The position numbers and the translations under genes were made by a program. Shown piece after piece: positions 8,688 through 55,207 of a stretch of 64,000 nt of DNA (position 1 is its first letter; every line of letters starts with the position of its first letter). The stretch is from a virus (Duplodnaviria; Heunggongvirae; Uroviricota; Caudoviricetes). Location of the stretch: IMG/VR virus record IMGVR_UViG_2690316068_000002. One strand, given 5' to 3'. The notes beneath the pieces are model-generated. The model did not search any database. It was not told the DNA's origin and was given only the letters and a program-made list of their open reading frames with translations.

Positions 8688-9391
8688 CAGCGCACCTCAC
8701 CATCTTTATGGCTGGAGTTAACTTCCGCCATTAAATGTCTGACGTAATCGACAAGAGAGCCACCTGGTGGAATCTGGCATTCCTCAACTAACTGGAAGTA
8801 GATATCCGCTGCATTACGTGTATTGCTACCCGCACATATTCTTTCTTCCCGAAGTGCATGAAGCTCGTTGATCAAACGGTCACACTCTCCGTTACGCTGA
8901 TCCACAACGGCCTCAAGCTCTGCGACGCGTTCACCTGGCGTCTTACCTTCTTTGCGTTGGATGGTAACGACGAAATCGCCAATTGCAGGGACGTTGTAAT
9001 CCAGCTCAAGGTAGTTTTTGGCACCGCTGCGGACGAACTCACCCGCGAACATGGTGGCGAACATCGCAGAGGCCACTTCGCCGTTGAAAAGTGACTCCAG
9101 ATCTAACGGAGTCCCGGCATCAAGAGCCTCTTTTGCTGTATCCATTGCATCCATGAACCGATCAAACTCATTGGCGCGCTTTTCCAGGTTTTTCCATTGC
9201 TCGCTCCAACGTTTGGCAACGAAGTCTATGAATGTTTTCGCGGATTCATCAAAATCCCCCTCAAACTTAACGATGCCTTTATCAATAATGATCTGGCCTA
9301 CCGCATCCTCTGCATAACCTTTCAATGTAAACTTGAAAGGAAAATCAGAATGGCCTGTGACGTTAAAATGCTCTAACTGGAGGTTGTTCAT
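8687..9391 (-). CDS. Hypothetical protein
   Basis: 234-aa ORF; stereotyped ribosome-binding context upstream. Confidence 0.5.
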   Translation of the reverse strand: MNNLQLEHFNVTGHSDFPFKFTLKGYAEDAVGQIIIDKGIVKFEGDFDESAKTFIDFVAKRWSEQWKNLEKRANEFDRFMDAMDTAKEALDAGTPLDLESLFNGEVASAMFATMFAGEFVRSGAKNYLELDYNVPAIGDFVVTIQRKEGKTPGERVAELEAVVDQRNGECDRLINELHALREERICAGSNTRNAADIYFQLVEECQIPPGGSLVDYVRHLMAEVNSSHKDGEVR

Positions 9392-9452
9392 GTGTTTTTC
9401 TCTTATCGTTTAGTAACTACATTCTTACACAAATTAGGTAAGTATTTACCTA

Positions 9453-11138
9453 TCATTTAACGCGTTTGAAAACGTATACGCTGACTGTGATCCCTGTGTC
9501 TTCAAACTCGTTGGTAAACGACTTCCCTCTGGCATAAACGTAATTATCCATCGTCATCCAGTCCAGTATTGGCGCAGTGCCCGGCAATACTGCTACAAGA
9601 CGCCCGCCGACTTTCAGATGCCCCAGCGCAGCCAGCGTGTGCTCTCTATGACGACCAAGCGAGTACGGCGGGTTCATAACGATTTTGTCGAACTGATAAC
9701 CTACGTTGTCCTCAGACCACTTTATGAAGTCGCAGCAAATCGTGTTCGTATACCCTTTTCCGCGCAGGATATCAGCGAAGAGAGGTGCGATTTCTATGCA
9801 GGTAACATCTTCCAGATCGGCGTTGATATAGGCCAGAAGATCCCCACGTCCGGCTTGAGGCTCCAGCAGCTTCTCACCAGACTTCAATTCAGTGGCTCTG
9901 GCAACGTACTCAGCAATCAAGCGTGGGGTAGGGTAGAACTGGTGTGATTTTGTATCCGGTATTAATCCGGTAGCCACAATCGTATTTAGCGTATGGCCGA
10001 TCTCATACGGGAACTGCCAGTGCTTTTTCTCCTGCACGCCGCCAATGAAGCTCAGTGTGCGCTCAAGCTCTTCCACCTGCGACTTCTGGAGAGCTGAATC
10101 AGAGAAGTACCATACGCCTTTGTCTTTGCTTAATCGCCCGTCACGAAGCGCAGTGCGAACCGGCACGGAGATCGTCTTCTGGATTAACCCGAACTGCTTT
10201 GGTGCCCGTGTTTTTGGCGCGGTGCGACATGGCGCGGGGATTGCAGCAGGCATACTGTAAGCCAGCACCTCATTCAACTTCCAGGCCACGTCAGGATGTA
10301 TTTCAAAGTGAACGTTGCCGTTCTTGAACATCTTCACGCGCATTAGATTTCCATCGACGTTCATCCAGTCACCGGTCTGGCAGTCGTTTGCCCGATACGC
10401 AGCTGATAGCACCTCAGCAGTGCGGTTGATGGTAATAAATTCTTTGTGCGCGAAGAAATGAAGCAAGACACGCAGATCGTCGATATAGTCCTCTTTGCGA
10501 TAGTTCACACTAACGCTGTCCCGCCAGAAATCAGAAATGCAGTCAGCGATTATCAGACGTTCGCTGAAACCGTTTGTCTTATTTGTCTTGTGCGCAGGAC
10601 TCAGCGCCTTAAACAAGCCATACACGCGCTCAGAGAGATATTTGTGCCTGTCATTCAGCAAATTAAGCATCGTGGGTATGACCGTTTCTGCTTTGAACTC
10701 CGGTACACCAACGAACTCTTTAACCTTCATCTGGTAGCCGGTTCTGTCAGTTTTGATGACTTCCTGTTTGCCCTCTATAAACTGCTCGCGCCACTCATCT
10801 CGACGGGAAGCTGGCATGATCAGCAAAACGTTAGTCATGTCCGTGACCTTCCTCCAGTACTCGGCCCAAATATTCTGTTTCACCCATTCCAGATCGACTT
10901 TATCCAACCAACCTCGATTTAAACGCGAGCGATCTTCATCTGGTCGATGGTTTAGTCTCAGCAGGCGATTAATCATGTTGTGGCGTTCGTCGCCATAAAC
11001 GAAGTCGTGTACCTGATACATGAAGGCGATCTCTTTCTCGCACTCGGCCACAATTTCGTGGATGACGTTCATTTCCTGCCGATAGTCGATAGCAGTGTTT
11101 GAGTTGGCATCGTCGATGATGGAAAGGGCTGTATTCAT
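9453..11138 (-). CDS. DNA methyltransferase (N6A/N4C class) with large N-terminal domain of unknown function
   Basis: 561 aa; C-terminal FYPTP...LEPQAGRG...VMNPPY motifs. Confidence 0.65.
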   Translation of the reverse strand: MNTALSIIDDANSNTAIDYRQEMNVIHEIVAECEKEIAFMYQVHDFVYGDERHNMINRLLRLNHRPDEDRSRLNRGWLDKVDLEWVKQNIWAEYWRKVTDMTNVLLIMPASRRDEWREQFIEGKQEVIKTDRTGYQMKVKEFVGVPEFKAETVIPTMLNLLNDRHKYLSERVYGLFKALSPAHKTNKTNGFSERLIIADCISDFWRDSVSVNYRKEDYIDDLRVLLHFFAHKEFITINRTAEVLSAAYRANDCQTGDWMNVDGNLMRVKMFKNGNVHFEIHPDVAWKLNEVLAYSMPAAIPAPCRTAPKTRAPKQFGLIQKTISVPVRTALRDGRLSKDKGVWYFSDSALQKSQVEELERTLSFIGGVQEKKHWQFPYEIGHTLNTIVATGLIPDTKSHQFYPTPRLIAEYVARATELKSGEKLLEPQAGRGDLLAYINADLEDVTCIEIAPLFADILRGKGYTNTICCDFIKWSEDNVGYQFDKIVMNPPYSLGRHREHTLAALGHLKVGGRLVAVLPGTAPILDWMTMDNYVYARGKSFTNEFEDTGITVSVYVFKRVK

Positions 11139-11179
11139 AATTGCACCATTAAGAAGTGATTTGTTTAATGGTGCAATTA
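11139..11179. promoter_or_regulatory. Perfect 14-bp inverted repeat abutting the methyltransferase start codon
   Basis: aattgcaccattaa-N13-ttaatggtgcaatt. Confidence 0.4.
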
Positions 11180-11241
11180 TTTCAAAAATGAAAAGGTACT
11201 AAATAGAAATAAACAGGCAATCCTTCAAATAAAGGCATTGG

Positions 11242-11856
11242 CTAATCATACTTGGAGGTATTTATCACCAGAATTTTGTTTGTATAAATCTTCTTAATAT
11301 CCCATGTGACATTACCGGAATACCATTGACCGTTATATACTTGGTTTCCAGTTGCACCTGTCATTGTTACATAGACAGGTCTGTCGTAATCGGTTCGTCT
11401 ATAGTTATATACCCCAACCATAGCAGGCATTACCGCACATGGATACCCCATATCTATTGTAAATTGAGGGTCAGAAATAGTGATAAGTTTCGCATCAAGG
11501 GGCATCATCTCACCGTGATACACCATTGCGCCTGCGCTGTTATACATGGCAATGCCATAGCCAGAATGTGGTAACACCATATCAGAAAAAGCATAAACTG
11601 TTATTGTTCCGGGGCTACCATTTACCTGATGCAATCTGAGAGCATTGTATCCGTTACTATGCTCATGAATAAACATCATGTTCGCCTTATTACTGCTTTT
11701 TATGAAGAAAAAGCATGATTTGTTTGATGGGATTGATGTTTGAAAAACAGAACCTTTAGATGTAGACATTGTCCCTTTATTAATCAGATTTTGCGGAGTA
11801 AATTCTGGACTCATCCACAAACTTCCATCTGATTGAGTAATTGACATCCCGAACAT
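11242..11856 (-). CDS. Hypothetical protein (low-GC cassette, gene 2)
   Basis: ORF-track 11242..11913 trimmed to ATG at 11856, 2 nt after the upstream stop; AT-rich. Confidence 0.35.
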   Translation of the reverse strand: MFGMSITQSDGSLWMSPEFTPQNLINKGTMSTSKGSVFQTSIPSNKSCFFFIKSSNKANMMFIHEHSNGYNALRLHQVNGSPGTITVYAFSDMVLPHSGYGIAMYNSAGAMVYHGEMMPLDAKLITISDPQFTIDMGYPCAVMPAMVGVYNYRRTDYDRPVYVTMTGATGNQVYNGQWYSGNVTWDIKKIYTNKILVINTSKYD

Positions 11857-11858
11857 AA

Positions 11859-12140
11859 TTATCCCCAGTATGTGTATATGTAAGAACCAAGCCCCGTATA
11901 TAAATTTGACCAACTAACCGTATTTCCATTAATAGTAACTGTTGGAACAGGTAAATTAATGTAGTTGTCGTTGTTAAGAGGCATCAATGACCACACGGCA
12001 TGTAGCGATTTACCCGGTGGCGGATTGGAGTACGTCTTAGAGCCTGATGACGCAGTAAATCGATCAAGAAAAAAAATAGGAGTAAGGAAGCCAGTAACGT
12101 TAATTCCTTTATTGTTGTAAATCCCTGTACCGTATGCCAT
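11859..12140 (-). CDS. Hypothetical protein (low-GC cassette, gene 1)
   Basis: 93 aa; AAGGA Shine-Dalgarno before ATG at 12140. Confidence 0.35.
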   Translation of the reverse strand: MAYGTGIYNNKGINVTGFLTPIFFLDRFTASSGSKTYSNPPPGKSLHAVWSLMPLNNDNYINLPVPTVTINGNTVSWSNLYTGLGSYIYTYWG

Positions 12141-12195
12141 TTTTCATCCTTGTTTTTTATCAACACAATATGGCCGATCATGCGGCCATATCAGA

Positions 12196-12765
12196 TCAAT
12201 TAGAGCTTTGAAAGGCTTTGTGTGGCTGTGTTGCGAGGTTATGTCGATGGCTTAACTCACGCATCATGTCTTCAAGCCGACTCTTTGTGTCGTCGAGTTG
12301 GTCGGCCATTGCTCCCAAAAGCTGACGAACGGCCATCGGATCATCGCTGTTTAGTGATGGCATTTTATAACCCGCCTGAGAAGACATAAGATTGAACGCA
12401 GACATCAACATCGTTAGAGAGGATGTAAGCCCAGCAATTTCACGATCTTTGCTGGCAATAATCGCCTCACTCTTGTTAGTGTCATCAGTTCGTTGAGTCT
12501 CGCTCACCATATCCAAAGTCGCCTGCAACTTATCAGCGCGCTCTTTTTCAGCAAGATAATGAACACCGAAATGATGTGCTAAAGCTACAACCTGAGTTGG
12601 CTCTTCAAAGGTGGACTCAAAATTAAGTGCTGTAACCACTCTCTCAAATATGGAAACGTCTTCTATTCCTCGAAGAATGGCTAACATTTTGACCAGTTCA
12701 TTAGCATCCATTTCTTCGAATAAGGCGTTTTGTTCATCAGCTATCGCTTTGCATTTCTTGCACAT
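12196..12765 (-). CDS. Hypothetical protein
   Basis: 189-aa ORF; conserved upstream motif and ribosome-binding context. Confidence 0.5.
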   Translation of the reverse strand: MCKKCKAIADEQNALFEEMDANELVKMLAILRGIEDVSIFERVVTALNFESTFEEPTQVVALAHHFGVHYLAEKERADKLQATLDMVSETQRTDDTNKSEAIIASKDREIAGLTSSLTMLMSAFNLMSSQAGYKMPSLNSDDPMAVRQLLGAMADQLDDTKSRLEDMMRELSHRHNLATQPHKAFQSSN

Positions 12766-13062
12766 GTGTTTTTCCTAATGCTTAAACAAGTTGTTTTCTT
12801 ATTGGCTTTATTGTGATGTGGCATAAAAGGGGAGCAAGCTAAACGTAAAGGTGCAAACTCTCTATTTCGGTCAACGAAACACAAGGGCCATTTGGCCCTT
12901 GTCATTAACACGTTGCTTTACGGACTAGCGGATAAGCGAAGTAGATCGCCAGACCAATGAGGACGCCATCAGAAATGACAGACATCATCTTTCCCGTAAA
13001 ATCCACCAACACCGCCATCACCAGAAGAGCAATGACGGTCACAAGCCGGAATCTCTCAAGCA

Positions 13063-13488
13063 TTAGAGATAAGCATCCAGTGACAACTGAAGCGCCTGTG
13101 CGATCTTTTTCAGGGCCAGCTCTTCTTGTTCGCCAATACCGTCTTGGTCGGCAATATCAAGGCACAGACACAGTACATCTACTGCATCATTAGTCCCGGC
13201 CACATCAGCCAGCTCACGTAAAGCCTGGGCATTAGCGCGGCGCGGTGAGGCTTCGTATTGAGCACGGATATTGGCGCTCATTTGGGCAATCTCACCAGCA
13301 AACGGAGAAAACGCAGGCAGAGCTGCAATTGTTTTCTCAAGAATGGAAATTTCCTTTGCGTCGCATGTGCCATCGGCATAGGAGATCATGTACGCGCCCC
13401 ACACGGTGGCTTCAACCGCATCTCGGTTCTCCATTTTTTTGACCTCGATAACAGCTTTACGAGTTTTCTTTTTGAATAAACCTAACAT
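13063..13488 (-). CDS. Hypothetical protein, TerB-like fold suspected
   Basis: 141 aa; weak motif-level resemblance to TerB. Confidence 0.35.
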   Translation of the reverse strand: MLGLFKKKTRKAVIEVKKMENRDAVEATVWGAYMISYADGTCDAKEISILEKTIAALPAFSPFAGEIAQMSANIRAQYEASPRRANAQALRELADVAGTNDAVDVLCLCLDIADQDGIGEQEELALKKIAQALQLSLDAYL

Positions 13489-13581
13489 GTGCTTTCCTTT
13501 TGTTATTTGTTAAAACAAGTTGTTTTCTAGTTACATGAATTGCTTACGAAAAGACGGTCAATGCATATGCACTAACAACCG

Positions 13582-13779
13582 TCAGAAATAACCAAGTACC
13601 GAACCGACTGGAAAAACAAAAATCCCAACAACACGAGCCAAGGTCATACCAGCCTGAAACTGGAGATCACCAGAGCAAACGAGTTTTACAATGTTCGATA
13701 CCCAACCGGCGGCCATGAGAGCTATGAAAGCCAGAATCGCCAGCCAAGTTTTTCCAAAGTGATTTGAAAACCAGTTCAT
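13582..13779 (-). CDS. Small membrane protein (2 predicted TM helices)
   Basis: 65-aa hydrophobic ORF; 4-nt overlap with upstream ORF. Confidence 0.4.
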   Translation of the reverse strand: MNWFSNHFGKTWLAILAFIALMAAGWVSNIVKLVCSGDLQFQAGMTLARVVGIFVFPVGSVLGYF

Positions 13780-14027
13780 ACAACCGCCTTAGTCACAGCA
13801 TGATCCTGAGTAACTGGATGAACTTGAGGTATCGCATCCACCGTCATCCCATCCAGAGTGACAGGACGCTCTACTGGAGTGGTGGTAATTGTCGTCGACG
13901 GAGGTGTGGTGATGGATGAACCCGGCATCAAAAGGCTCTGGCCGGCTGGAACGGCTACCGTCGCCAGTGAAACTATAATGAGAACGTAGGCCATTGGTTT
14001 CAGCCTCTTTCTTTGAAAATTTTCCAT
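13776..14027 (-). CDS. Small Pro/Thr-rich protein with signal-peptide-like N-terminus (alternative frame)
   Basis: 83-aa ORF embedded out of frame in the 3' half of 13789..14283. Confidence 0.3.
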   Translation of the reverse strand: MENFQRKRLKPMAYVLIIVSLATVAVPAGQSLLMPGSSITTPPSTTITTTPVERPVTLDGMTVDAIPQVHPVTQDHAVTKAVV

Positions 14028-14283
14028 TCGAACTGTCCTTGTTGTTTTTCTCCTTCACTAAAGGCCGTGTACTTTTCGCTTCGCGTGAAGAACCAGAGGT
14101 AACAATCGCCCCCACGTTCGCAACAACTGACGCTTGCTTATCTAAACGTTCATTCAGCAACCGAACGGCAGTCTCTAGTTCATCAAGACGTGACAGAACA
14201 CGACCGCTAAATAATTCGGCCAAAATTTGACGTAGTGAACGAGGACGTTTAGTTGCAGAAGTGAAATAGGTTTGACGTGCCAT
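13789..14283 (-). CDS. Hypothetical protein (C-terminal half low-complexity)
   Basis: 164-aa ORF starting at ATG 14283; overlaps an alternative-frame ORF. Confidence 0.35.
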   Translation of the reverse strand: MARQTYFTSATKRPRSLRQILAELFSGRVLSRLDELETAVRLLNERLDKQASVVANVGAIVTSGSSREAKSTRPLVKEKNNKDSSNGKFSKKEAETNGLRSHYSFTGDGSRSSRPEPFDAGFIHHHTSVDDNYHHSSRASCHSGWDDGGCDTSSSSSYSGSCCD

Positions 14284-14428
14284 GTGGACTCCATCCAGTG
14301 TCAGAAAGAGTTGCGGCTGGCGATTGCCAGCCGCCTTTCTCGTTCCATCCTGGAACTGTGTCTTACCGACACATTGTCATCCTGACGCCGATAAGATACA
14401 TGATTTAAAATGATAGGTAAACACTTAC

Positions 14429-15073
14429 TTACTGCTTGTTGTAAACAAAACCAATATCTTTCTTGTGAGGCATATCTGCTGCGGAAAAAGCTGCGATCTT
14501 CGCGAGTCGATCACATATTTCATTTTCACGATGCCCGGCGTGACCTTTAACCCACTTCCAGCGAACATTATGTCGACTTGCAGCCTCATCCAGACGCTTC
14601 CACAGATCAACATTCTTTACCGGTTTTTTATCAGAAGTCATCCATCCATTACGTTTCCACCATTTCATCCACTGTGTCATGCCGTTTTTCAGATACTGGC
14701 TATCAGAGTACAAAATAACGTTGCATGGATATTTCAAACGCTCCAGCCCGATAAGTGCGCCCATCATCTCCATGCGGTTATTGGTGGTGCTATGAAAACC
14801 ATCTGAGAACTCGCGTTCCTCACCACGATACTGGAGAACGATACCGTAACCGCCCGGGCCACCCGGATTTTTAAGGCAAGAGCCATCACTAAAGATTTTC
14901 ACGGTTTTGAGCTGGGGATTGAACTCTACGACAGGCGTTGTGGGATTGGTGCGGGGAGATTTTTTGTTTTTGGCTTTTTTGCGAGTTTTTGCTTGCGATC
15001 GGGCTGGTGTCTTCGTCGTCATATAAACTCCTGAATCAAGCGCCGCGCCGATTTTTTCCTCGCGCGTGCGCAC
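14429..15073 (-). CDS. Ribonuclease HI with N-terminal basic extension
   Basis: [21 protein letters not shown]...[10 protein letters not shown]...[16 protein letters not shown] aligns to E. coli RNase HI catalytic residues. True start may be an internal Met. Confidence 0.8.
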
Positions 15074-15604
15074 ACGCGTGCGTGTTAATAATTATTAAAA
15101 TAAACAAATTACTTCCCAGAACAGGTTTTTATAAACCTGAACTGAACGAACGAAGTGAGTGAAGTTCACCTCGAACGAAGTGAGAGGTTGTCTTTTCAGG
15201 TAATACTCTCCCAGGGAGGTGAGTATAAAATTCCTCACCAACCTGGTCGTTTCATAACCTGAAAAGCTATGGTCTAAGTCTACTGCCAGCTTAGACTTGG
15301 GAAGTTATGGATGACAGCACCCCAGAACCGAGATCTTCCCACACTTTATGAAGGGGAGTACTGGATTCAACCTCTCGAAACACCCCAGACTCGACAATCA
15401 TAAAGTGACCCTTGTCTCTGCTCACTTTGGTTCCCCCTTCCCCGACACCTAAACGGCACCGGTTCTACGCTGGTAGTGAGCTTTTTTAAACCTGACGCCA
15501 GTGACGCTTACCCCCACCCATCAGGTCGAGTCTCCAGTCTACGACTGGAAACTATCAGATCTTAGCACTTACAATTCACTTTATAAATAGTTTGTACTTA
15601 TCTA

Positions 15605-15859
15605 TCATTGTGATTGATTATTTTCTCGACCATGTAGTTGAACATTCAAGGCAAACACCTCATTGATCAACTCACCTAAAAGCTGTTCAACAAGTTCGCG
15701 ATGCTCGCCAAGATGCAAGCACTTAATTGCCCACTCGTACAAGTTGAAAGCCTGCTCACGATCTTTCATCATTTCACGAGCCTGGGCCAGAAAATCGCTC
15801 TCTACGAGCGCAACGACATTAGTCGGGTATGACATGTTGGTTTCCTTAAAGTGGTTCAT
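15605..15859 (-). CDS. Hypothetical protein
   Basis: 84-aa ORF. Confidence 0.4.
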   Translation of the reverse strand: MNHFKETNMSYPTNVVALVESDFLAQAREMMKDREQAFNLYEWAIKCLHLGEHRELVEQLLGELINEVFALNVQLHGRENNQSQ

Positions 15860-15940
15860 AAAATCGATTTTAAAGCGTCTGGGAAGGGGTTCTAGTGGAT
15901 TCTGTAGTGATGTTCAGGTCTGGAGTCTCTGATACAAAAC

Positions 15941-15999
15941 AGCCTGCTTCCGTATATTAATAATTAATATGTAGTTATTTATATATACAGAAGCAGGCT
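15941..15999. repeat. Palindromic element, copy 1 (17-bp arms, AT-rich loop)
   Basis: agcctgcttccgtatat ... atatacagaagcaggct; near-identical arms recur at about 63013-63069. Confidence 0.6.
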
Positions 16000-16020
16000 A
16001 ATTACAGACGCCAGAACAAA

Positions 16021-16614
16021 CTAAGCAGCCTTCTTTGATGGTCTTTTTTTCCTGATCACATTCGCAGGATCATACCCTCCCAGACTTTTCATGACGTCCA
16101 AAGGGATCTTGCTTATAGAGTGCCCAGCGTCCTGACAGAATCCTCGAAAAACAACGAGCATACTGCCACCGGGGTTGATGTTTACTTCTACCTGACCCAA
16201 ATTGACGTCAGGCTCGACAAACGCTACGCGGCCACCAGACAGAATAATCGTCTCATTCGCATACTCTGTTGCACGCTCATACCACTTTGTATCGAGGGAT
16301 TGAGGAATTAGCATCACTGTTGTAACTCCGCGAGCCTGCTCACGTATAGCAGCATCAATCCAGGGGGAGATTTTGGAGTAGGGTGGATTGAGGAAGGCAA
16401 TTGTACCTGGCTGTCCCCATTCAGATTTCAAAGCATCACGCTCAATGCCTATGAAATTAGGCAGCTTTGCGTTGTCCTTGTTGCAGGCAACGTCAACATC
16501 AAATGTCACTCCAAGATAACGTTGAATGGCAGAAAACAGCCAATCAGGTGTTCTCCAGAGGTCACGAAGAGAGTTGTCGCGCTTTCGCTGTTTGATTTTT
16601 TCGGCTGCAATCAT
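16021..16614 (-). CDS. Phage Dam-family N6-adenine DNA methyltransferase
   Basis: 197 aa; NPPYS catalytic motif. Confidence 0.7.
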   Translation of the reverse strand: MIAAEKIKQRKRDNSLRDLWRTPDWLFSAIQRYLGVTFDVDVACNKDNAKLPNFIGIERDALKSEWGQPGTIAFLNPPYSKISPWIDAAIREQARGVTTVMLIPQSLDTKWYERATEYANETIILSGGRVAFVEPDVNLGQVEVNINPGGSMLVVFRGFCQDAGHSISKIPLDVMKSLGGYDPANVIRKKRPSKKAA

Positions 16615-16682
16615 CTTCTTTCTCGATAGGTAAGTGATTACCTATTTTTGCATTTGATTTTATGTCTGGCAATCAAATAAAA

Positions 16683-16723
16683 CGCGCCAGAAATGCAAAC
16701 GAGAAGCTCTCTGGCGCGTTTTT
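16683..16723. terminator. Rho-independent terminator (bidirectional candidate)
   Basis: cgcgccag-N20-ctggcgcg followed by TTTTT. Confidence 0.5.
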
Positions 16724-16797
16724 GTGGTGCTGGATATGTGATTGGCTTACCCAGCACTATAAAGCTCTCTATGGGCTTTATTTTCAGTAGGGGGACG

Positions 16798-17607
16798 TCA
16801 TCCAATAGTGTACTCCGCTACAAACTTCTTAACGATCGGTGATTCTTCGTTCAATGTTAGATTTCCACCGTCTCTAACGGCAACTCCTGTCGCTGGAAAT
16901 ACAGCCATCATTTGCCCAGCCTGAGTTGACGCAGTGTTAAGCGGATACGGTTTTTCTGGATTGCTCATTAAAGCAATCTTAATACTATTACTTGTAGCCT
17001 TCTTTTCTGTGAGAAGGTGTCTCATGGAAATTACCGTGTAAACACTAATATCTGGACCTCCGCTAAACCAATTAAGAAGGTTTAATATCTTATCCTTTGC
17101 TTTGACAGGCGCGTTTTCGTAAGCGTCTAAGAAAATATCTGTTTCTAATCCTGCTTTATTGAAAAACGAATCATCTTTATCACTTAAAGTAAAACGAGGA
17201 CCTCTTGCAGTACGCGCTTTTTTATTTGTGTTGCTATCATTTGACTGTTGAACTTTTAATTCATCATTAACATCAACACACTCTTCAACCTCAATCAATC
17301 CCAATTGTTCTGGCTCGTTTTCGGCAGATTCAACACTTTCAGCGTTAATTACGTTTATAGGCTCATGCGCTAACTCCAACTCATTTAAAGCAGAGCTGAA
17401 ATCACCTGCTTTTTCTTCATTGAACAGTTCTTCGGCAACATCATCAGAACTCATGGCTACGCCAGCATCGAGGCCGAGCAGCAGATCGTCAATATCATCA
17501 GTATTTTCAACCTGTGCGGCTTTTTTTACTGGTTCATCAAGTGATTGCAACATGGCTGTCAGCTCGTCCAGATCATCATTTGTCATTACATTTTCAACCG
17601 AACTCAT
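16798..17607 (-). CDS. Hypothetical acidic protein
   Basis: 269-aa ORF, Asp/Glu-rich. Confidence 0.5.
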   Translation of the reverse strand: MSSVENVMTNDDLDELTAMLQSLDEPVKKAAQVENTDDIDDLLLGLDAGVAMSSDDVAEELFNEEKAGDFSSALNELELAHEPINVINAESVESAENEPEQLGLIEVEECVDVNDELKVQQSNDSNTNKKARTARGPRFTLSDKDDSFFNKAGLETDIFLDAYENAPVKAKDKILNLLNWFSGGPDISVYTVISMRHLLTEKKATSNSIKIALMSNPEKPYPLNTASTQAGQMMAVFPATGVAVRDGGNLTLNEESPIVKKFVAEYTIG

Positions 17608-32663: not shown

Positions 32664-32750
32664 ATGTCATTTTTCTGTGATTGTTAGCCGAGGCAACGAT
32701 AACCCACCAGGTGCGCCGAAGGTAGTAAATGCCTGTTTTAATTATTCACA

Positions 32751-32759
32751 TTATCCACA
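32751..32759. promoter_or_regulatory. DnaA box (consensus 9-mer)
   Basis: TTATCCACA perfect match, just upstream of GATC cluster and iterons. Confidence 0.6.
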
Positions 32760-32764
32760 GGATA

Positions 32765-32823
32765 GATCCTAATAAAGAGATCCATAGATAGATCCTTGTA
32801 TAGATCAAATAAGATCCCCGATC
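32765..32823. promoter_or_regulatory. GATC (Dam-site) cluster in AT-rich origin region
   Basis: Six GATC sites within about 59 bp, several within AGATCC heptamers. Confidence 0.65.
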
Positions 32824-32864
32824 GCTGTAAGCCGCGCCACGACTGGTCTGAAGCCATGTTCATG

Positions 32865-32965
32865 TATGCTGTCAGCGGTAATTGATAGTCTGTCAGCGGT
32901 TCACCGTATGCTGCCAACTGTTTTTGGTATTCTGTCAGCGGCAAATCAAGTATGCTGTCAGCGGT
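32865..32965. repeat. Origin iterons, upstream set (5 direct repeats, about 21-bp periodicity)
   Basis: TATGCTGTCAGCGGT and variants starting at about 32865, 32886, 32907, 32928, 32951. Confidence 0.85.
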
Positions 32966-32985
32966 TGAATGACAAAGGTGTCCAC

Positions 32986-34080
32986 ATGTCCACAAAAAAT
33001 AAAAAAGGTAAAAATAACAAAGAAGTAGAAGATAACATCGACAACTTTGAAGAAGGTTCCCTTGAATTGTACACAGGGGAACTTGTCCCTAATAGCAACA
33101 ATACAGTCCAACCAATTGCGTTGATGCGACTGGGGTTGTTCGTCCCCACGCTTAAGGGAACAAAATACAGTAAACGTAACAAGCCAAATGAGATCGATGC
33201 TTCAAAGGAGCTTGTCCAGCTCGAAGTAGCCCGTTCTGAAGGCTATTCCGATATCAAGATAACCGGCCCTCGCCTGGACATGGATCATGATTTCAAAACG
33301 TGGGTGGGCGTTGTGCGTTCGCTGGCAGAATACGGCGAACCTAATGGTCGTGTCGAGTTAAGCATCACGAAATTTGCGAAGTTTTGTGGCTATCCATCGT
33401 CACAGATCCGCAAAACACTCCGCGACCGGCTTACAAACAGTCTTTTGAAGATCATGCGTACAACTCTGTCTTTCCAGAGAACGTATGAAGAAAAGAACGT
33501 CGACGGCTCTAACAAGATCTCGCTTCTGATGGTGCACCTCATCAATAGCGTGGACTACAACGAGCAGAAAGATACGGTGGTGTTCTATGCAGAACCGAAG
33601 CTGGCCGAACTATATCGCTTTGACCATAAGGTTCTTTTGCAGTTAAAGGTTATCAATAAGCTACCACGCAAAGAAACAGCACAGGCTCTGTACACCTTCA
33701 TCGAAAGTCTTCCAACCAAGCCTGCGCCGGTATCGCTTGCTCGATTGCGTGCGCGACTCAATTTGAGTAGCAGGAATGTCAGCTCGCAGAATCAGACTAT
33801 ACGTAACGGCTTAAAAGCTCTCCAAGATTTGGGCTATCTCGAATACAGCGAGATTAAGCGTGGGCGGTCGATCTATATCCAGATTCACAGCCGCAATCCA
33901 AAACTCAAAGTCGCACCGCCAAAACCTGAAGACATCGAACCCAAAAAACCAGATGAGAAAGCTGGGGAAATTGATGCCAAACAGAACATTATCAACAAGA
34001 TAACCGAACTTTCGCAGAATTTGACGCCTGAAAATATCAAGATGATTGAGATCCTTTCCAATAGTCTCAAACTGCTTTGA
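32986..34080 (+). CDS. repA: Plasmid-type replication initiator (iteron-binding Rep)
   Basis: 364 aa from internal ATG 32986; flanked by iteron sets, DnaA box and GATC cluster. Family assignment by architecture and recalled similarity. Confidence 0.75.
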   Translation: MSTKNKKGKNNKEVEDNIDNFEEGSLELYTGELVPNSNNTVQPIALMRLGLFVPTLKGTKYSKRNKPNEIDASKELVQLEVARSEGYSDIKITGPRLDMDHDFKTWVGVVRSLAEYGEPNGRVELSITKFAKFCGYPSSQIRKTLRDRLTNSLLKIMRTTLSFQRTYEEKNVDGSNKISLLMVHLINSVDYNEQKDTVVFYAEPKLAELYRFDHKVLLQLKVINKLPRKETAQALYTFIESLPTKPAPVSLARLRARLNLSSRNVSSQNQTIRNGLKALQDLGYLEYSEIKRGRSIYIQIHSRNPKLKVAPPKPEDIEPKKPDEKAGEIDAKQNIINKITELSQNLTPENIKMIEILSNSLKLL

Positions 34081-34197
34081 TATGCTGTCAGCGGTGAAAT
34101 GTATGCTATCAGCGGCTATTTTTCTGAAAAGTATGCTGTGAACGGTTAAAGATATGCTACCAGCGGTATAGTGAGATAAACGTATGCTGTGAGCGGT
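34081..34197. repeat. Iterons, downstream set A (5 copies)
   Basis: TATGCT(G/A)(T/C)(C/G)A(G/A)CGG(T/C) at about 34081, 34102, 34132, 34154, 34183. Confidence 0.85.
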
Positions 34198-34358
34198 AAA
34201 TCATCTATCACCACTCAATGCTCTGGCATACCTCCCCAGTGGTTACTAACCTCGAAGAGTGCATTCCATATAGGTTTGCGCTCACTAACATTCTATTGCC
34301 GTTGCGCTGATTGCTTGTAGTGAAAGGCATTTATTGCCTGCTGCTCCCTGATAGAACG

Positions 34359-34612
34359 TATGCTGTCAGCGGTGTTTTATTGAGGAATTTTTGTTTGGAT
34401 ATGCTATCAGCGGTAATTAATGGTATATGTCAGACCTTCGTATGCTGCCAGCGGTAATTTTGTTCTGGTTATACCCATACCGGTACACATTATTCATGCA
34501 ATGTCTTAAGTATGCTGTCAGCGGTAAAAAATCGAGTAAAGTATGCTGTGAGCGGTGAGATAAACTCTCGATATGCTATCAGCGGTAATTGATTGTGTAT
34601 GCTGTCAGCGGT
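34359..34612. repeat. Iterons, downstream set B (7-8 copies)
   Basis: Copies at about 34359, 34400, 34441, 34511, 34542, 34572, 34598 plus a degenerate copy near 34425. Confidence 0.85.
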
Positions 34613-34628
34613 GACGACTATGAAATAT

Positions 34629-42448: not shown

Positions 42449-42754
42449 TCTGTTCTCTGTAAAGGTGTCTGGCATCGTCTGGTTCGTTAACGTTTACTAA
42501 ACCAATGGTGACAAAAATTAGTTATCTTTGAAAAATAAAGGTTGCATGAAAAGAAGGGGTATGCGTTAATAGCATCGTTGGTTTGCAAGACAGACCTTAT
42601 GTAAGCAGTTTTAGTAAAGCAGTCTCAGTTCAGTGTTATCTTCTGATTTCCCTTCTTCGTGAGTCTCCTCCTTAAGTGCCTAAGTAAGTCCCAATCTATA
42701 CAGATCAAATTCTCGCCGCACTATGTGGCTCACAAAATTAAGAAGGTAATATCT

Positions 42755-42970
42755 ATGTCTAATAAAATGACTGGTTTAGTAAAATGGTTTAACTCTGATA
42801 AAGGCTTTGGCTTTATTTCTCCTGCTGATGGCAGTAAAGATGTTTTTGTACATTTTTCGGCAATTCAGAGTAATAATTTCCGCACTTTGGAAGAAGGCCA
42901 GCAGGTCGAATTCTCTATCGAGAATGGGGCTAAAGGCCCAGCAGCAGCAAATGTCGTTGCTCTAAGTTGA
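42755..42970 (+). CDS. Cold-shock protein, CspA family
   Basis: 71 aa from ATG 42755; [13 protein letters not shown]...[13 protein letters not shown]-track start 42659 lies in the long leader. Confidence 0.9.
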
Positions 42971-43245
42971 TTCAACGCTGATGATCCTCATTTCTACAAT
43001 AACGAAGACGGTGTAAGCCTGAGTGGATAGATTTGTAGGATTGTACAAGTTGAATAAATTAGCATGGTAAGGCCATGCTAATTAAATCGACACAACGGCC
43101 AGTTTATTCCATAAAAGTGAATTGCCCATTGTGGCGAAATGCGGGGTTGCCGCATGAATAGTCAAAGGCAGAAGCTAACTGCCGGCATGGCAAAACAAAG
43201 TGCGTAAGAGGAGTGACTTCCTCAACAAGCGCCATAATTCTTTAT

Positions 43246-54660: not shown

Positions 54661-54747
54661 TGGCGGAGAGTAATGGAATCGAACCATCATCGCTTGCGCA
54701 ATGGGACGGTTTTCAAGACCGCTTGAGCACCATGCTCCCTACTCTCC
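54661..54747 (-). tRNA. tRNA-Ser (anticodon UGA), type II
   Basis: Hand-folded: GGAGAGT/ACTCTCC acceptor, G discriminator, encoded CCA, anticodon loop CUUGAAA, long variable arm, TTCGATT T-loop. Confidence 0.75.
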
Positions 54748-54960
54748 AGTTGTTGTGGTGCCGGGGGCTTCCCGGTGTCCTTTGGCTGGTTATCCACCGT
54801 GGACGGAGCCAATAGTCATCACAAAGGATCAATATAACCATTTCCCCGCGTGCGCTTAGCCGCATTCACCACAACGAAAAGAGCACTGTATGACGTTTGC
54901 ACGGACTTACGCTTAAAACAGGGCAGTCTCGGCGGTTCTCAATGCTCTTTCCTGTTGTGT

Positions 54961-55036
54961 TGGTGCCGGTTAACGGATTCGAACCGCCGACCATTCGCTT
55001 ACAAGGCGACTGCTCTACCAACTGAGCTAAACCGGC
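54961..55036 (-). tRNA. tRNA-Thr (anticodon UGU)
   Basis: GCCGGTT/AACCGGC acceptor, encoded CCA, anticodon loop CUUGUAA, TTCGAAT T-loop. Confidence 0.75.
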
Positions 55037-55040
55037 AATT

Positions 55041-55127
55041 TGGTGGGGAGTGATGGAGTCGAACCACCCGAGTCGCAATGACAGTAGATTTACAGTCTAC
55101 ACCGCTACCTCTACGGACTAACTCCCC
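55041..55127 (-). tRNA. tRNA-Tyr (anticodon GUA), type II
   Basis: GGGGAGT/ACTCCCC acceptor, encoded CCA, anticodon stem-loop GACUGUAAAUC, long variable arm. Confidence 0.75.
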
Positions 55128-55132
55128 TAAAT

Positions 55133-55207
55133 TGGCGATGGTGGGTGGATTCGAACCACCGACCAGTTGGTTAACAGCCAACTGCTCTACCGCTGAGCTA
55201 CACCATC
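55133..55207 (-). tRNA. tRNA-Asn (anticodon GUU)
   Basis: GATGGTG/CACCATC acceptor, encoded CCA, anticodon loop CUGUUAA, TTCGAAT T-loop. Confidence 0.75.

Follow-up and report, generated by a model that had tools for sequence, protein, structure and literature searches.

Two probable orphan DNA methylases and a P1-type, GATC-rich origin in an SSU5/pHCM2-like phage-plasmid of Escherichia coli

The 64,000-nucleotide stretch of DNA analysed here, referred to throughout as the window, belongs to a virus of the Caudoviricetes (IMG/VR virus record IMGVR_UViG_2690316068_000002) that is identified below as an SSU5/pHCM2-like phage-plasmid, and it carries both a plasmid origin with a tight cluster of GATC sites and the genes for two proteins, of 197 and 561 residues, which are very probably DNA adenine methylases. 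The reading that we favour, and hold to be reasonably probable, is that the Dam methylase of the host would serve the origin while the element persists as a plasmid, that both phage methylases would modify progeny DNA during lytic growth, and that the link between the methylases and the origin would be an indirect one. An arrangement of this kind is to be expected; it combines a P1-type replicon with orphan phage methylases, both of known kinds.

Identity of the element and its two methylases

Region 9000-17000 of the window is 100% identical to the E. coli plasmid pRHB31-C19_2 (CP057251.1, 110,652 bp, non-mobilizable), with 6 mismatches between window and record in the 31,015 bases compared (window positions equal CP057251.1 positions minus 77,667, the repA ATG at window position 32986 being record position 1). 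The same region is 95.6-98% identical, with the entire query covered, to the Escherichia phages CMS-2020a, Cyrano and PhiR41_1, and ~80% identical to Salmonella phage SSU5 across 70% of the query. The remainder of CP057251.1 contains terminase, portal, capsid, tape-measure, tail and tail-fibre genes; the record also encodes DNA polymerase III alpha, primase, ligase, nrdAB, thyA and dhfr, and the window itself runs on into the polymerase, primase and ligase genes. By these structural and replication genes and the SSU5-like matches, the element is recognisable as an SSU5/pHCM2-like phage-plasmid of E. coli of 110 kb.

The smaller enzyme, encoded at 16021-16614 on the minus strand, matches the Pfam family PF05869 ‘Dam’ with 130.8 bits (cut-off 28.1) over residues 13-173 of its 197 and the TIGR01712 profile (phage_N6A_met, phage N-6-adenine-methyltransferase) with 113.6 bits (cut-off 97.05), and is matched by the orphan-methylase models of PADLOC (1.3e-12). 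A tblastn search gave 39% identity to a Stx-phage Dam protein, and in alignments the identities are 34%, 29% and 27% to the Dam enzymes of Stx-phage 24B, Haemophilus phage HP2 and a T1-like phage, respectively. The residues of the NPPYS motif (aa 76-80; N76, P77, P78, Y79 and S80) are invariant across these three enzymes, as are D18, W20, T22, P23, D41 and N48, and no sequence relative was found among the PDB sequences. Profile matches and alignment identify the protein as a typical representative of PF05869, a phage family of orphan N6-adenine DNA methylases; E. coli Dam belongs to another family (PF02086). Family, size, the motifs DxWxTP and NPPYS, orphan status and a location among phage early or replication genes are shared with the Dam enzymes of HP1/HP2, VT-2/Stx-phages and T1-type phages, those of HP1, VT-2 and T1 being reported as GATC-specific. 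The differences are that the window copy resides on a plasmid-prophage and that, at 27-39% identity, its target is not secured; the 197-residue enzyme is probably specific for GATC, and a literature search on PF05869 was uninformative about specificity. Dam-like genes have been reported in P1, VT-2, the T-even phages and HP1 (PMC7556043).

The larger protein is encoded by an open reading frame at 9453-11138 (minus strand), within which 9453-9953 specifies the C-terminal catalytic domain (residues 396-561) and 9954-11138 an N-terminal module of 395 residues. The catalytic domain displays methylase motifs in the gamma-type order X (QFYPTP), I (LEPQAGRGD), II (E449), III (DF470-471) and IV (NPPY489-492, within an NPPYS at residues 489-493). 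In 20 homologues, down to 33% identity, QFYPTP 400-405, P427, A429, G430, G432, E449, D470, F471, N489, P490 and P491 are invariant, motif I taking the form LEPxAGxG and motif IV the form NPP(Y/F). A single-sequence search of the PDB returned just a marginal match to TaqI (E 0.1); a profile was required, and that built from the alignment of the 20 homologues gave modest matches to EcoR124II HsdM (1.2e-4), M.TaqI (1e-3) and another adenine-specific DNA methylase. In an AlphaFold model of the protein (pLDDT 83), the Foldseek matches to class I S-adenosylmethionine-dependent methylases, which include TaqI and StySJI HsdM and are of the Rossmann-type fold, are confined to the catalytic domain. PADLOC matched the mad2 (5e-15) and MTase_II (2.8e-10) models, the mad2 and type IIG matches covering the methylase domain only, and PHROG likewise assigns the protein to DNA methylase models. 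In Pfam, DUF4942 was the sole family recognised and no methylase (N6_Mtase) match was obtained; some of the homologues carry precomputed PF02384 or PF05175 assignments.

The X-I-II-III-IV order, the NPPY loop and the Rossmann fold are shared with the gamma-class enzymes M.TaqI and EcoR124II HsdM, the best profile matches, from which the 561-residue protein differs in its 395-residue DUF4942 module, in the absence of a TaqI-like C-terminal recognition domain (the chain ends ~70 residues past NPPY) and in the lack of an HsdS-like neighbour as partner. The preliminary description of this DNA had named a Dam-family enzyme with an NPPYS motif and a 561-residue enzyme with a C-terminal NPPY domain and a large N-terminus; both are present, ‘Dam family’ being understood as the phage PF05869 family. 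Kinship of the larger protein with DarB of P1, suggested by PHROG matches to giant methylase-containing proteins, was also considered and rejected, BLASTP giving motif fragments only.

Residues 140-295 of the N-terminal module match DUF4942 (PF13708) with 74 bits (cut-off 25), corresponding to profile positions 35-187 of 190. When residues 1-395 were searched against 1.84 billion cluster representatives, 611 relatives were found; among the best 150 of these, 132 of the 135 full-length proteins (median length, 536 residues) end in NPP(Y/F/W) or SPPF, which marks the module, across this family sample, as an obligate partner of the methylase domain. Because the 561-residue protein has no C-terminal recognition domain, the simplest account is that the DUF4942 module, whose fold is unassigned, probably reads the target sequence of the enzyme. 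The module also contains the invariant polar residues E170, R171, H183, N186, D221, R223, D262, H277 and H281, with D283 nearly so, and has no solved structural relative; furthermore, tRNA and rRNA methylases are found among the structural neighbours of the catalytic domain, and PF05175 occurs in some homologues. These features would suit a protein that is something other than a plain DNA methylase, either with the module as a second enzyme (e.g. a nuclease, in a single-chain, type IIG-like restriction-modification or exclusion protein) or with RNA or protein as its substrate; we regard such a protein as highly improbable.

The DUF4942-methylase family is represented in ~2,250 sequenced plasmids, including IncHI2 resistance plasmids, as well as in prophages. 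Full-length homologues at ~30% identity occur in more than 1,600 large plasmid records, mostly typed conjugative. In lambdoid prophages, distant members belong to the early regions, where they have other orphan methylases (PF01555, C5) as neighbours and no endonuclease accompanies them. A literature search found no functional study of DUF4942, and this family, specifically its N-terminal module, is the sole uncharacterised part of the arrangement.

Both methylase genes are located within one long leftward (minus-strand) array of phage replication and nucleotide-metabolism genes, with neighbours encoding RNase H, a 3'-5' exonuclease, a TerB/TciA-like protein, dihydrofolate reductase (dhfr), thymidylate synthase (thyA) and NrdAB, and the pair is syntenic in SSU5 and in the Klebsiella phage-plasmid pJN2-26. 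None of the 8 proteins flanking the methylase genes matched a defence-system model of PADLOC, and no endonuclease is present among the annotated genes of the whole 110,652-bp record. In particular, no cognate endonuclease or other component that would assign them to a type II, type IIG or MADS system adjoins the methylases. Judged from this gene content, both enzymes are orphans, without a restriction or defence partner close by.

An inverted repeat with perfectly paired 16-nt arms and a 12-nt loop (11137-11180, minus strand) overlaps both the ribosome-binding region of the 561-residue gene and, in its ATG, the first two bases (AT) and, folded as RNA, has a dG of -20.6 kcal/mol (z -4.26), which makes it a possible translational or operator control element. 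The left arm of this hairpin is not conserved in SSU5 or Klebsiella pJN2-26 and the hairpin is therefore not used here as evidence of regulation; any regulatory role would be lineage-specific and is uncertain and unproven.

Two further observations concern the surroundings of the methylase genes. Between them, 11242-11913 (minus strand) encodes a ‘membrane associated protein’ moron (PHROG 425, 2e-72), the DNA of which is ~76% identical to genes of JenP1/JenP2-type phages and more weakly (~65%) related to Stx phage genes; the lack of an annotated counterpart at that position in SSU5 or pJN2-26 gives it the look of a recent insertion. In the otherwise tightly packed array, a stretch of 530 bp (15074-15604) that lies between the RNase H gene and its neighbour contains no open reading frame of 50 residues or more, and a comparison of this interval with Rfam gave nothing at the gathering threshold.

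The plasmid origin and its replicon

The replicon lies 16 kb from the methylase genes. Two tandem DnaA boxes (TTATTCACA and TTATCCACA; 32742-32759, plus strand), which align with the annotated DnaA site of the P1/P7 oriR, precede six GATC sites in AGATCC-type repeats (32765-32823), the predicted Dam/SeqA-responsive core of oriR by its homology to that of P1/P7. The sites are found at 32765, 32779, 32791, 32803, 32813 and 32820, i.e. within 59 bp and at spacings of 14, 12, 12, 10 and 7 bp. When the 276 GATC sites of the window were placed at random, at least six fell within 60 bp in 34 of 20,000 placements, and the origin is the lone strong GATC cluster of the entire 110,652-bp element. The window as a whole has no GATC bias (276 sites observed versus 263.5 +/- 15.8 in shuffles). 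The six origin sites of the preliminary description are real in number, but are positioned 16 kb outside the region (9453-16614) that it dealt with.

Over 32731-32853 the DNA is 78-83% identical to the oriR core of P1/P7, whose annotation labels the aligned features as a DnaA site and Dam methylation sites. The aligned origins of P1 and P7 contain five GATC sites each and those of the window, SSU5 and Cyrano six, the spacing being nearly unchanged from one origin to another (13-14, 12, 12, 10 and 7 bp), and continue with a conserved GC-rich spacer and then five iterons of lineage-specific sequence. In the window these iterons (consensus GTATGCTGTCAGCGG; 32864-32969, plus strand) are situated upstream of repA, in the position of P1 incC iterons 10-14, and are the equivalent of incC. 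The repA gene (32986-34080, plus strand, from the ATG at 32986) encodes a Rep3-type initiator of 364 residues (P1 RepA match, Pfam Rep3_N, PHROG 775) that is 46% identical to P1 RepA over 278 residues (E 3e-86), and downstream of it, as for incA in P1, at least 10 further iterons (families D1-D3; 34080-34616, plus strand) make up an incA-like copy-control array. The homology of the oriR core, the relationship of the RepA proteins and the presence of iterons on both sides of repA point to a full P1-type oriR/RepA replicon, and the assignment of the GATC cluster as a real functional part of the plasmid origin is supported.

The likeness to the P1/P7 replicon comprises the tandem DnaA boxes, five to six GATC repeats, the GC-rich spacer, five iterons, repA and a downstream iteron array. 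The differences reside in the iterons (GTATGCTGTCAGCGG in the window versus TGTGCTGGAGGG-type in P1), in the number of GATC sites (six versus five) and in RepA, which has a C-terminal extension in the window (364 versus 286 residues in P1). Dependence on Dam and SeqA has been reported for the P1 replicon and is predicted by homology for that of the window; according to the titles of studies cited in PMC2865523, P1 replication requires methylated DNA and adenine methylation exerts control at two levels. For the most part, the origin result bears out, in another lineage of phage-plasmids, what is textbook knowledge for P1.

The iterons themselves vary among close relatives that share the origin core, those of the window (32864-32969) differing from those of SSU5 and Cyrano. 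In the methylase region, Cyrano matches the window at 97.7% identity, but its iterons are of the SSU5 type, and the window iterons are shared with a Klebsiella phage-plasmid. This mismatch between otherwise close relatives suggests that initiator/iteron cassettes may be swapped on a constant origin core.

Origin control, packaging and protection from restriction

In the plasmid (lysogenic) state, host Dam would keep the six origin GATC sites methylated, as it does for P1, so that the methylated oriR would be competent for replication and, again following P1, would be sequestered by SeqA once it had fired. The two phage methylases would act mainly during lytic growth, when synthesis of element DNA would outpace host Dam, and both would mark progeny DNA ahead of packaging, the small enzyme probably at GATC and the large enzyme at a second motif read by its DUF4942 module. 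Packaged DNA would consequently reach the next cell fully modified and resist those restriction enzymes that are blocked by the marks, and the incoming oriR would already be methylated and replication-competent. Because packaged DNA would arrive modified, the connection between the methylases and the origin would be indirect, the enzymes aiding establishment after infection rather than steady-state control of the origin.

Two precedents resemble this scheme in part. The Dmt protein of P1, which is much larger and belongs to a different methylase family, is likewise a GATC-type methylase on a phage-plasmid with a GATC-rich, methylation-dependent oriR in a Dam+ host, and by analogy the enzyme of the window may be a lytic-phase supplement to host Dam; the documented role of Dmt is, however, in methylation of the pac site, and the element described here has no pac-like GATC cluster. 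M.EcoGII represents yet another methylase family, the orphan anti-restriction methylases of this type being similar to those of the window in that they occur as orphans on temperate elements, often among several on the same element. M.EcoGII-type orphan phage methylases can be silent in lysogens, semi-specific orphan methylases protect exported DNA, and the Dam enzyme of P1 itself has lytic functions, in pac cleavage, and is of consequence in Dam- hosts only (PMC12707154). Protection from restriction, which the preliminary description had offered as one of two possible functions, is on this analysis plausible and the reading that we prefer.

The other proposed function was control by the element of the methylation of its own origin. 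In that case the GATC methylase of the element would be expressed in the plasmid state and would itself set the methylation of the origin, conferring independence from host Dam or tuning copy number. The origin core is indeed homologous to the oriR of P1, which needs methylated DNA; a GATC-type methylase is encoded in each of two unrelated lineages of phage-plasmids that have this core (P1, through dmt, and the SSU5-like elements); and an IncHI2 plasmid, considered below, pairs a Dam-family gene with GATC-rich iteron origins. However, the 197-residue gene lies inside the phage DNA-metabolism array, 16 kb away from the replicon, and PF05869-type methylases are found in 1,981 phage records, most of them from phage groups not known as plasmid replicators and many of them without a plasmid origin. 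Furthermore, the origin core is present in 1,621 plasmids, 63 of these from Yersinia, and at least 62 of the Yersinia plasmids keep the core without a Dam-like gene: the gene for the 197-residue Dam-like enzyme, present in 740 plasmids, occurs in at most one Yersinia record, and Yersinia falls outside the ten commonest genera for the DUF4942-methylase, which corresponds to at most 11 records. The occurrence of the core in many plasmids that lack these genes makes origin control by the element's own enzyme unlikely as a main role. The usual hosts, Escherichia, Klebsiella and Salmonella, are moreover Dam+, and Abeles and Austin are said to have reported in 1987 that P1 plasmids fail in dam- hosts although they carry dmt. 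With these points and the pac role of the P1 methylase taken together, we consider direct control of the origin very unlikely. In its overall interpretation, the preliminary description is sustained as far as the methylases are very probable and the GATC cluster is a real part of the origin, but its case for the element's own control of origin methylation is weak.

A regulatory function is a further alternative, in which one or both methylases would mainly control gene expression of the element, the decision between lysis and lysogeny or a pac-type packaging step, rather than provide protection. In P1, the regulatory region cre contains annotated Dam sites. According to reviews, control of viral replication cycles may be a role of many orphan phage methylases, and dmt of P1 is required for methylation of the pac site and packaging in Dam- hosts (PMC12707154). 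A packaging role in the style of P1 was examined by searching the whole 110,652-bp element for a second, pac-like GATC cluster and was rejected, the best candidate besides the origin being a group of 4 within 100 bp in the portal gene; nor was a conserved GATC-bearing promoter identified. Regulation as the main function appears unlikely on this balance.

The combination of genes seen in the window recurs on an unrelated element. On the IncHI2 conjugative plasmid NZ_CP019443.1 (1900-10700 and 17200-17500), 1.8 kb separate a full-length homologue of the DUF4942-methylase (30% identity) from a Dam-family methylase; the DUF4942-methylase sits between two iteron replicons, with upstream GATC clusters of 6 sites within 160 bp and 7 within 250 bp, and the plasmid repeats the three-part combination of the window. 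A bolder view would make the DUF4942 module a new kind of domain for DNA target recognition (or a second catalytic domain) in a large family of mobile-element methylases; its repeated appearance together with a GATC-type methylase and with iteron origins rich in GATC would reflect a real coupling, by which an element would pre-set the methylation of its own origin for establishment after transfer. We consider this quite unlikely.

Several points weigh against the favoured reading, in which host Dam serves the plasmid origin and the phage enzymes modify progeny DNA. The IncHI2 combination could point to a tighter tie between methylases and replication than is assumed in it. The division of labour between the lytic and plasmid states is deduced from gene position and the P1 and M.EcoGII precedents only, and a scan for promoters and terminators over 9-19 kb was uninformative (11 promoter-like sites versus 16.1 +/- 3.7 in shuffles). 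The GATC specificity of the 197-residue enzyme leans on identities of 27-39%, which are too low to fix specificity. Moreover, to our knowledge, restriction enzymes that cut unmethylated GATC are uncommon in enterobacteria, and the value of extra GATC methylation is therefore unclear. The function of phage Dam enzymes has itself been described as ‘still not well understood’ (PMC7556043).

Other features of the element and wider relevance

Three features lie apart from the methylase genes and the replicon. The first 2200 positions of the window hold the 3' part of metG and a complete apbC/mrp, typical chromosomal housekeeping genes (GC 0.51), inside the phage-plasmid. This block is found in ~203 plasmid records, almost all of them Escherichia and non-mobilizable, with listed examples of 110-115 kb; in view of this recurrence it looks like a captured and stably inherited chromosomal segment rather than an assembly error. 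The cspA thermoregulator RNA (Rfam RF01766, 187 bits) is matched over its full length at 42577-42994 (plus strand), upstream of a cspG-like cold-shock gene, and four clustered tRNA genes (Ser-TGA, Thr-TGT, Tyr-GTA and Asn-GTT) occupy 54661-55207 (minus strand).

Literature searches returned nothing on the methylases of SSU5 or pHCM2, and a preprint on heteroresistance and phage-plasmids concerns another replicon type. The motif of the DUF4942-methylase, once known, would aid the methylome-based linking of plasmids to their hosts. In SSU5-like phage-plasmids, a survey from 2025 detected few anti-defence systems of recognised types (bioRxiv 10.1101/2025.09.12.675607). Clinical Escherichia, Shigella, Salmonella and Klebsiella commonly carry these elements, and the two conserved orphan methylases would be their simplest route past restriction barriers.

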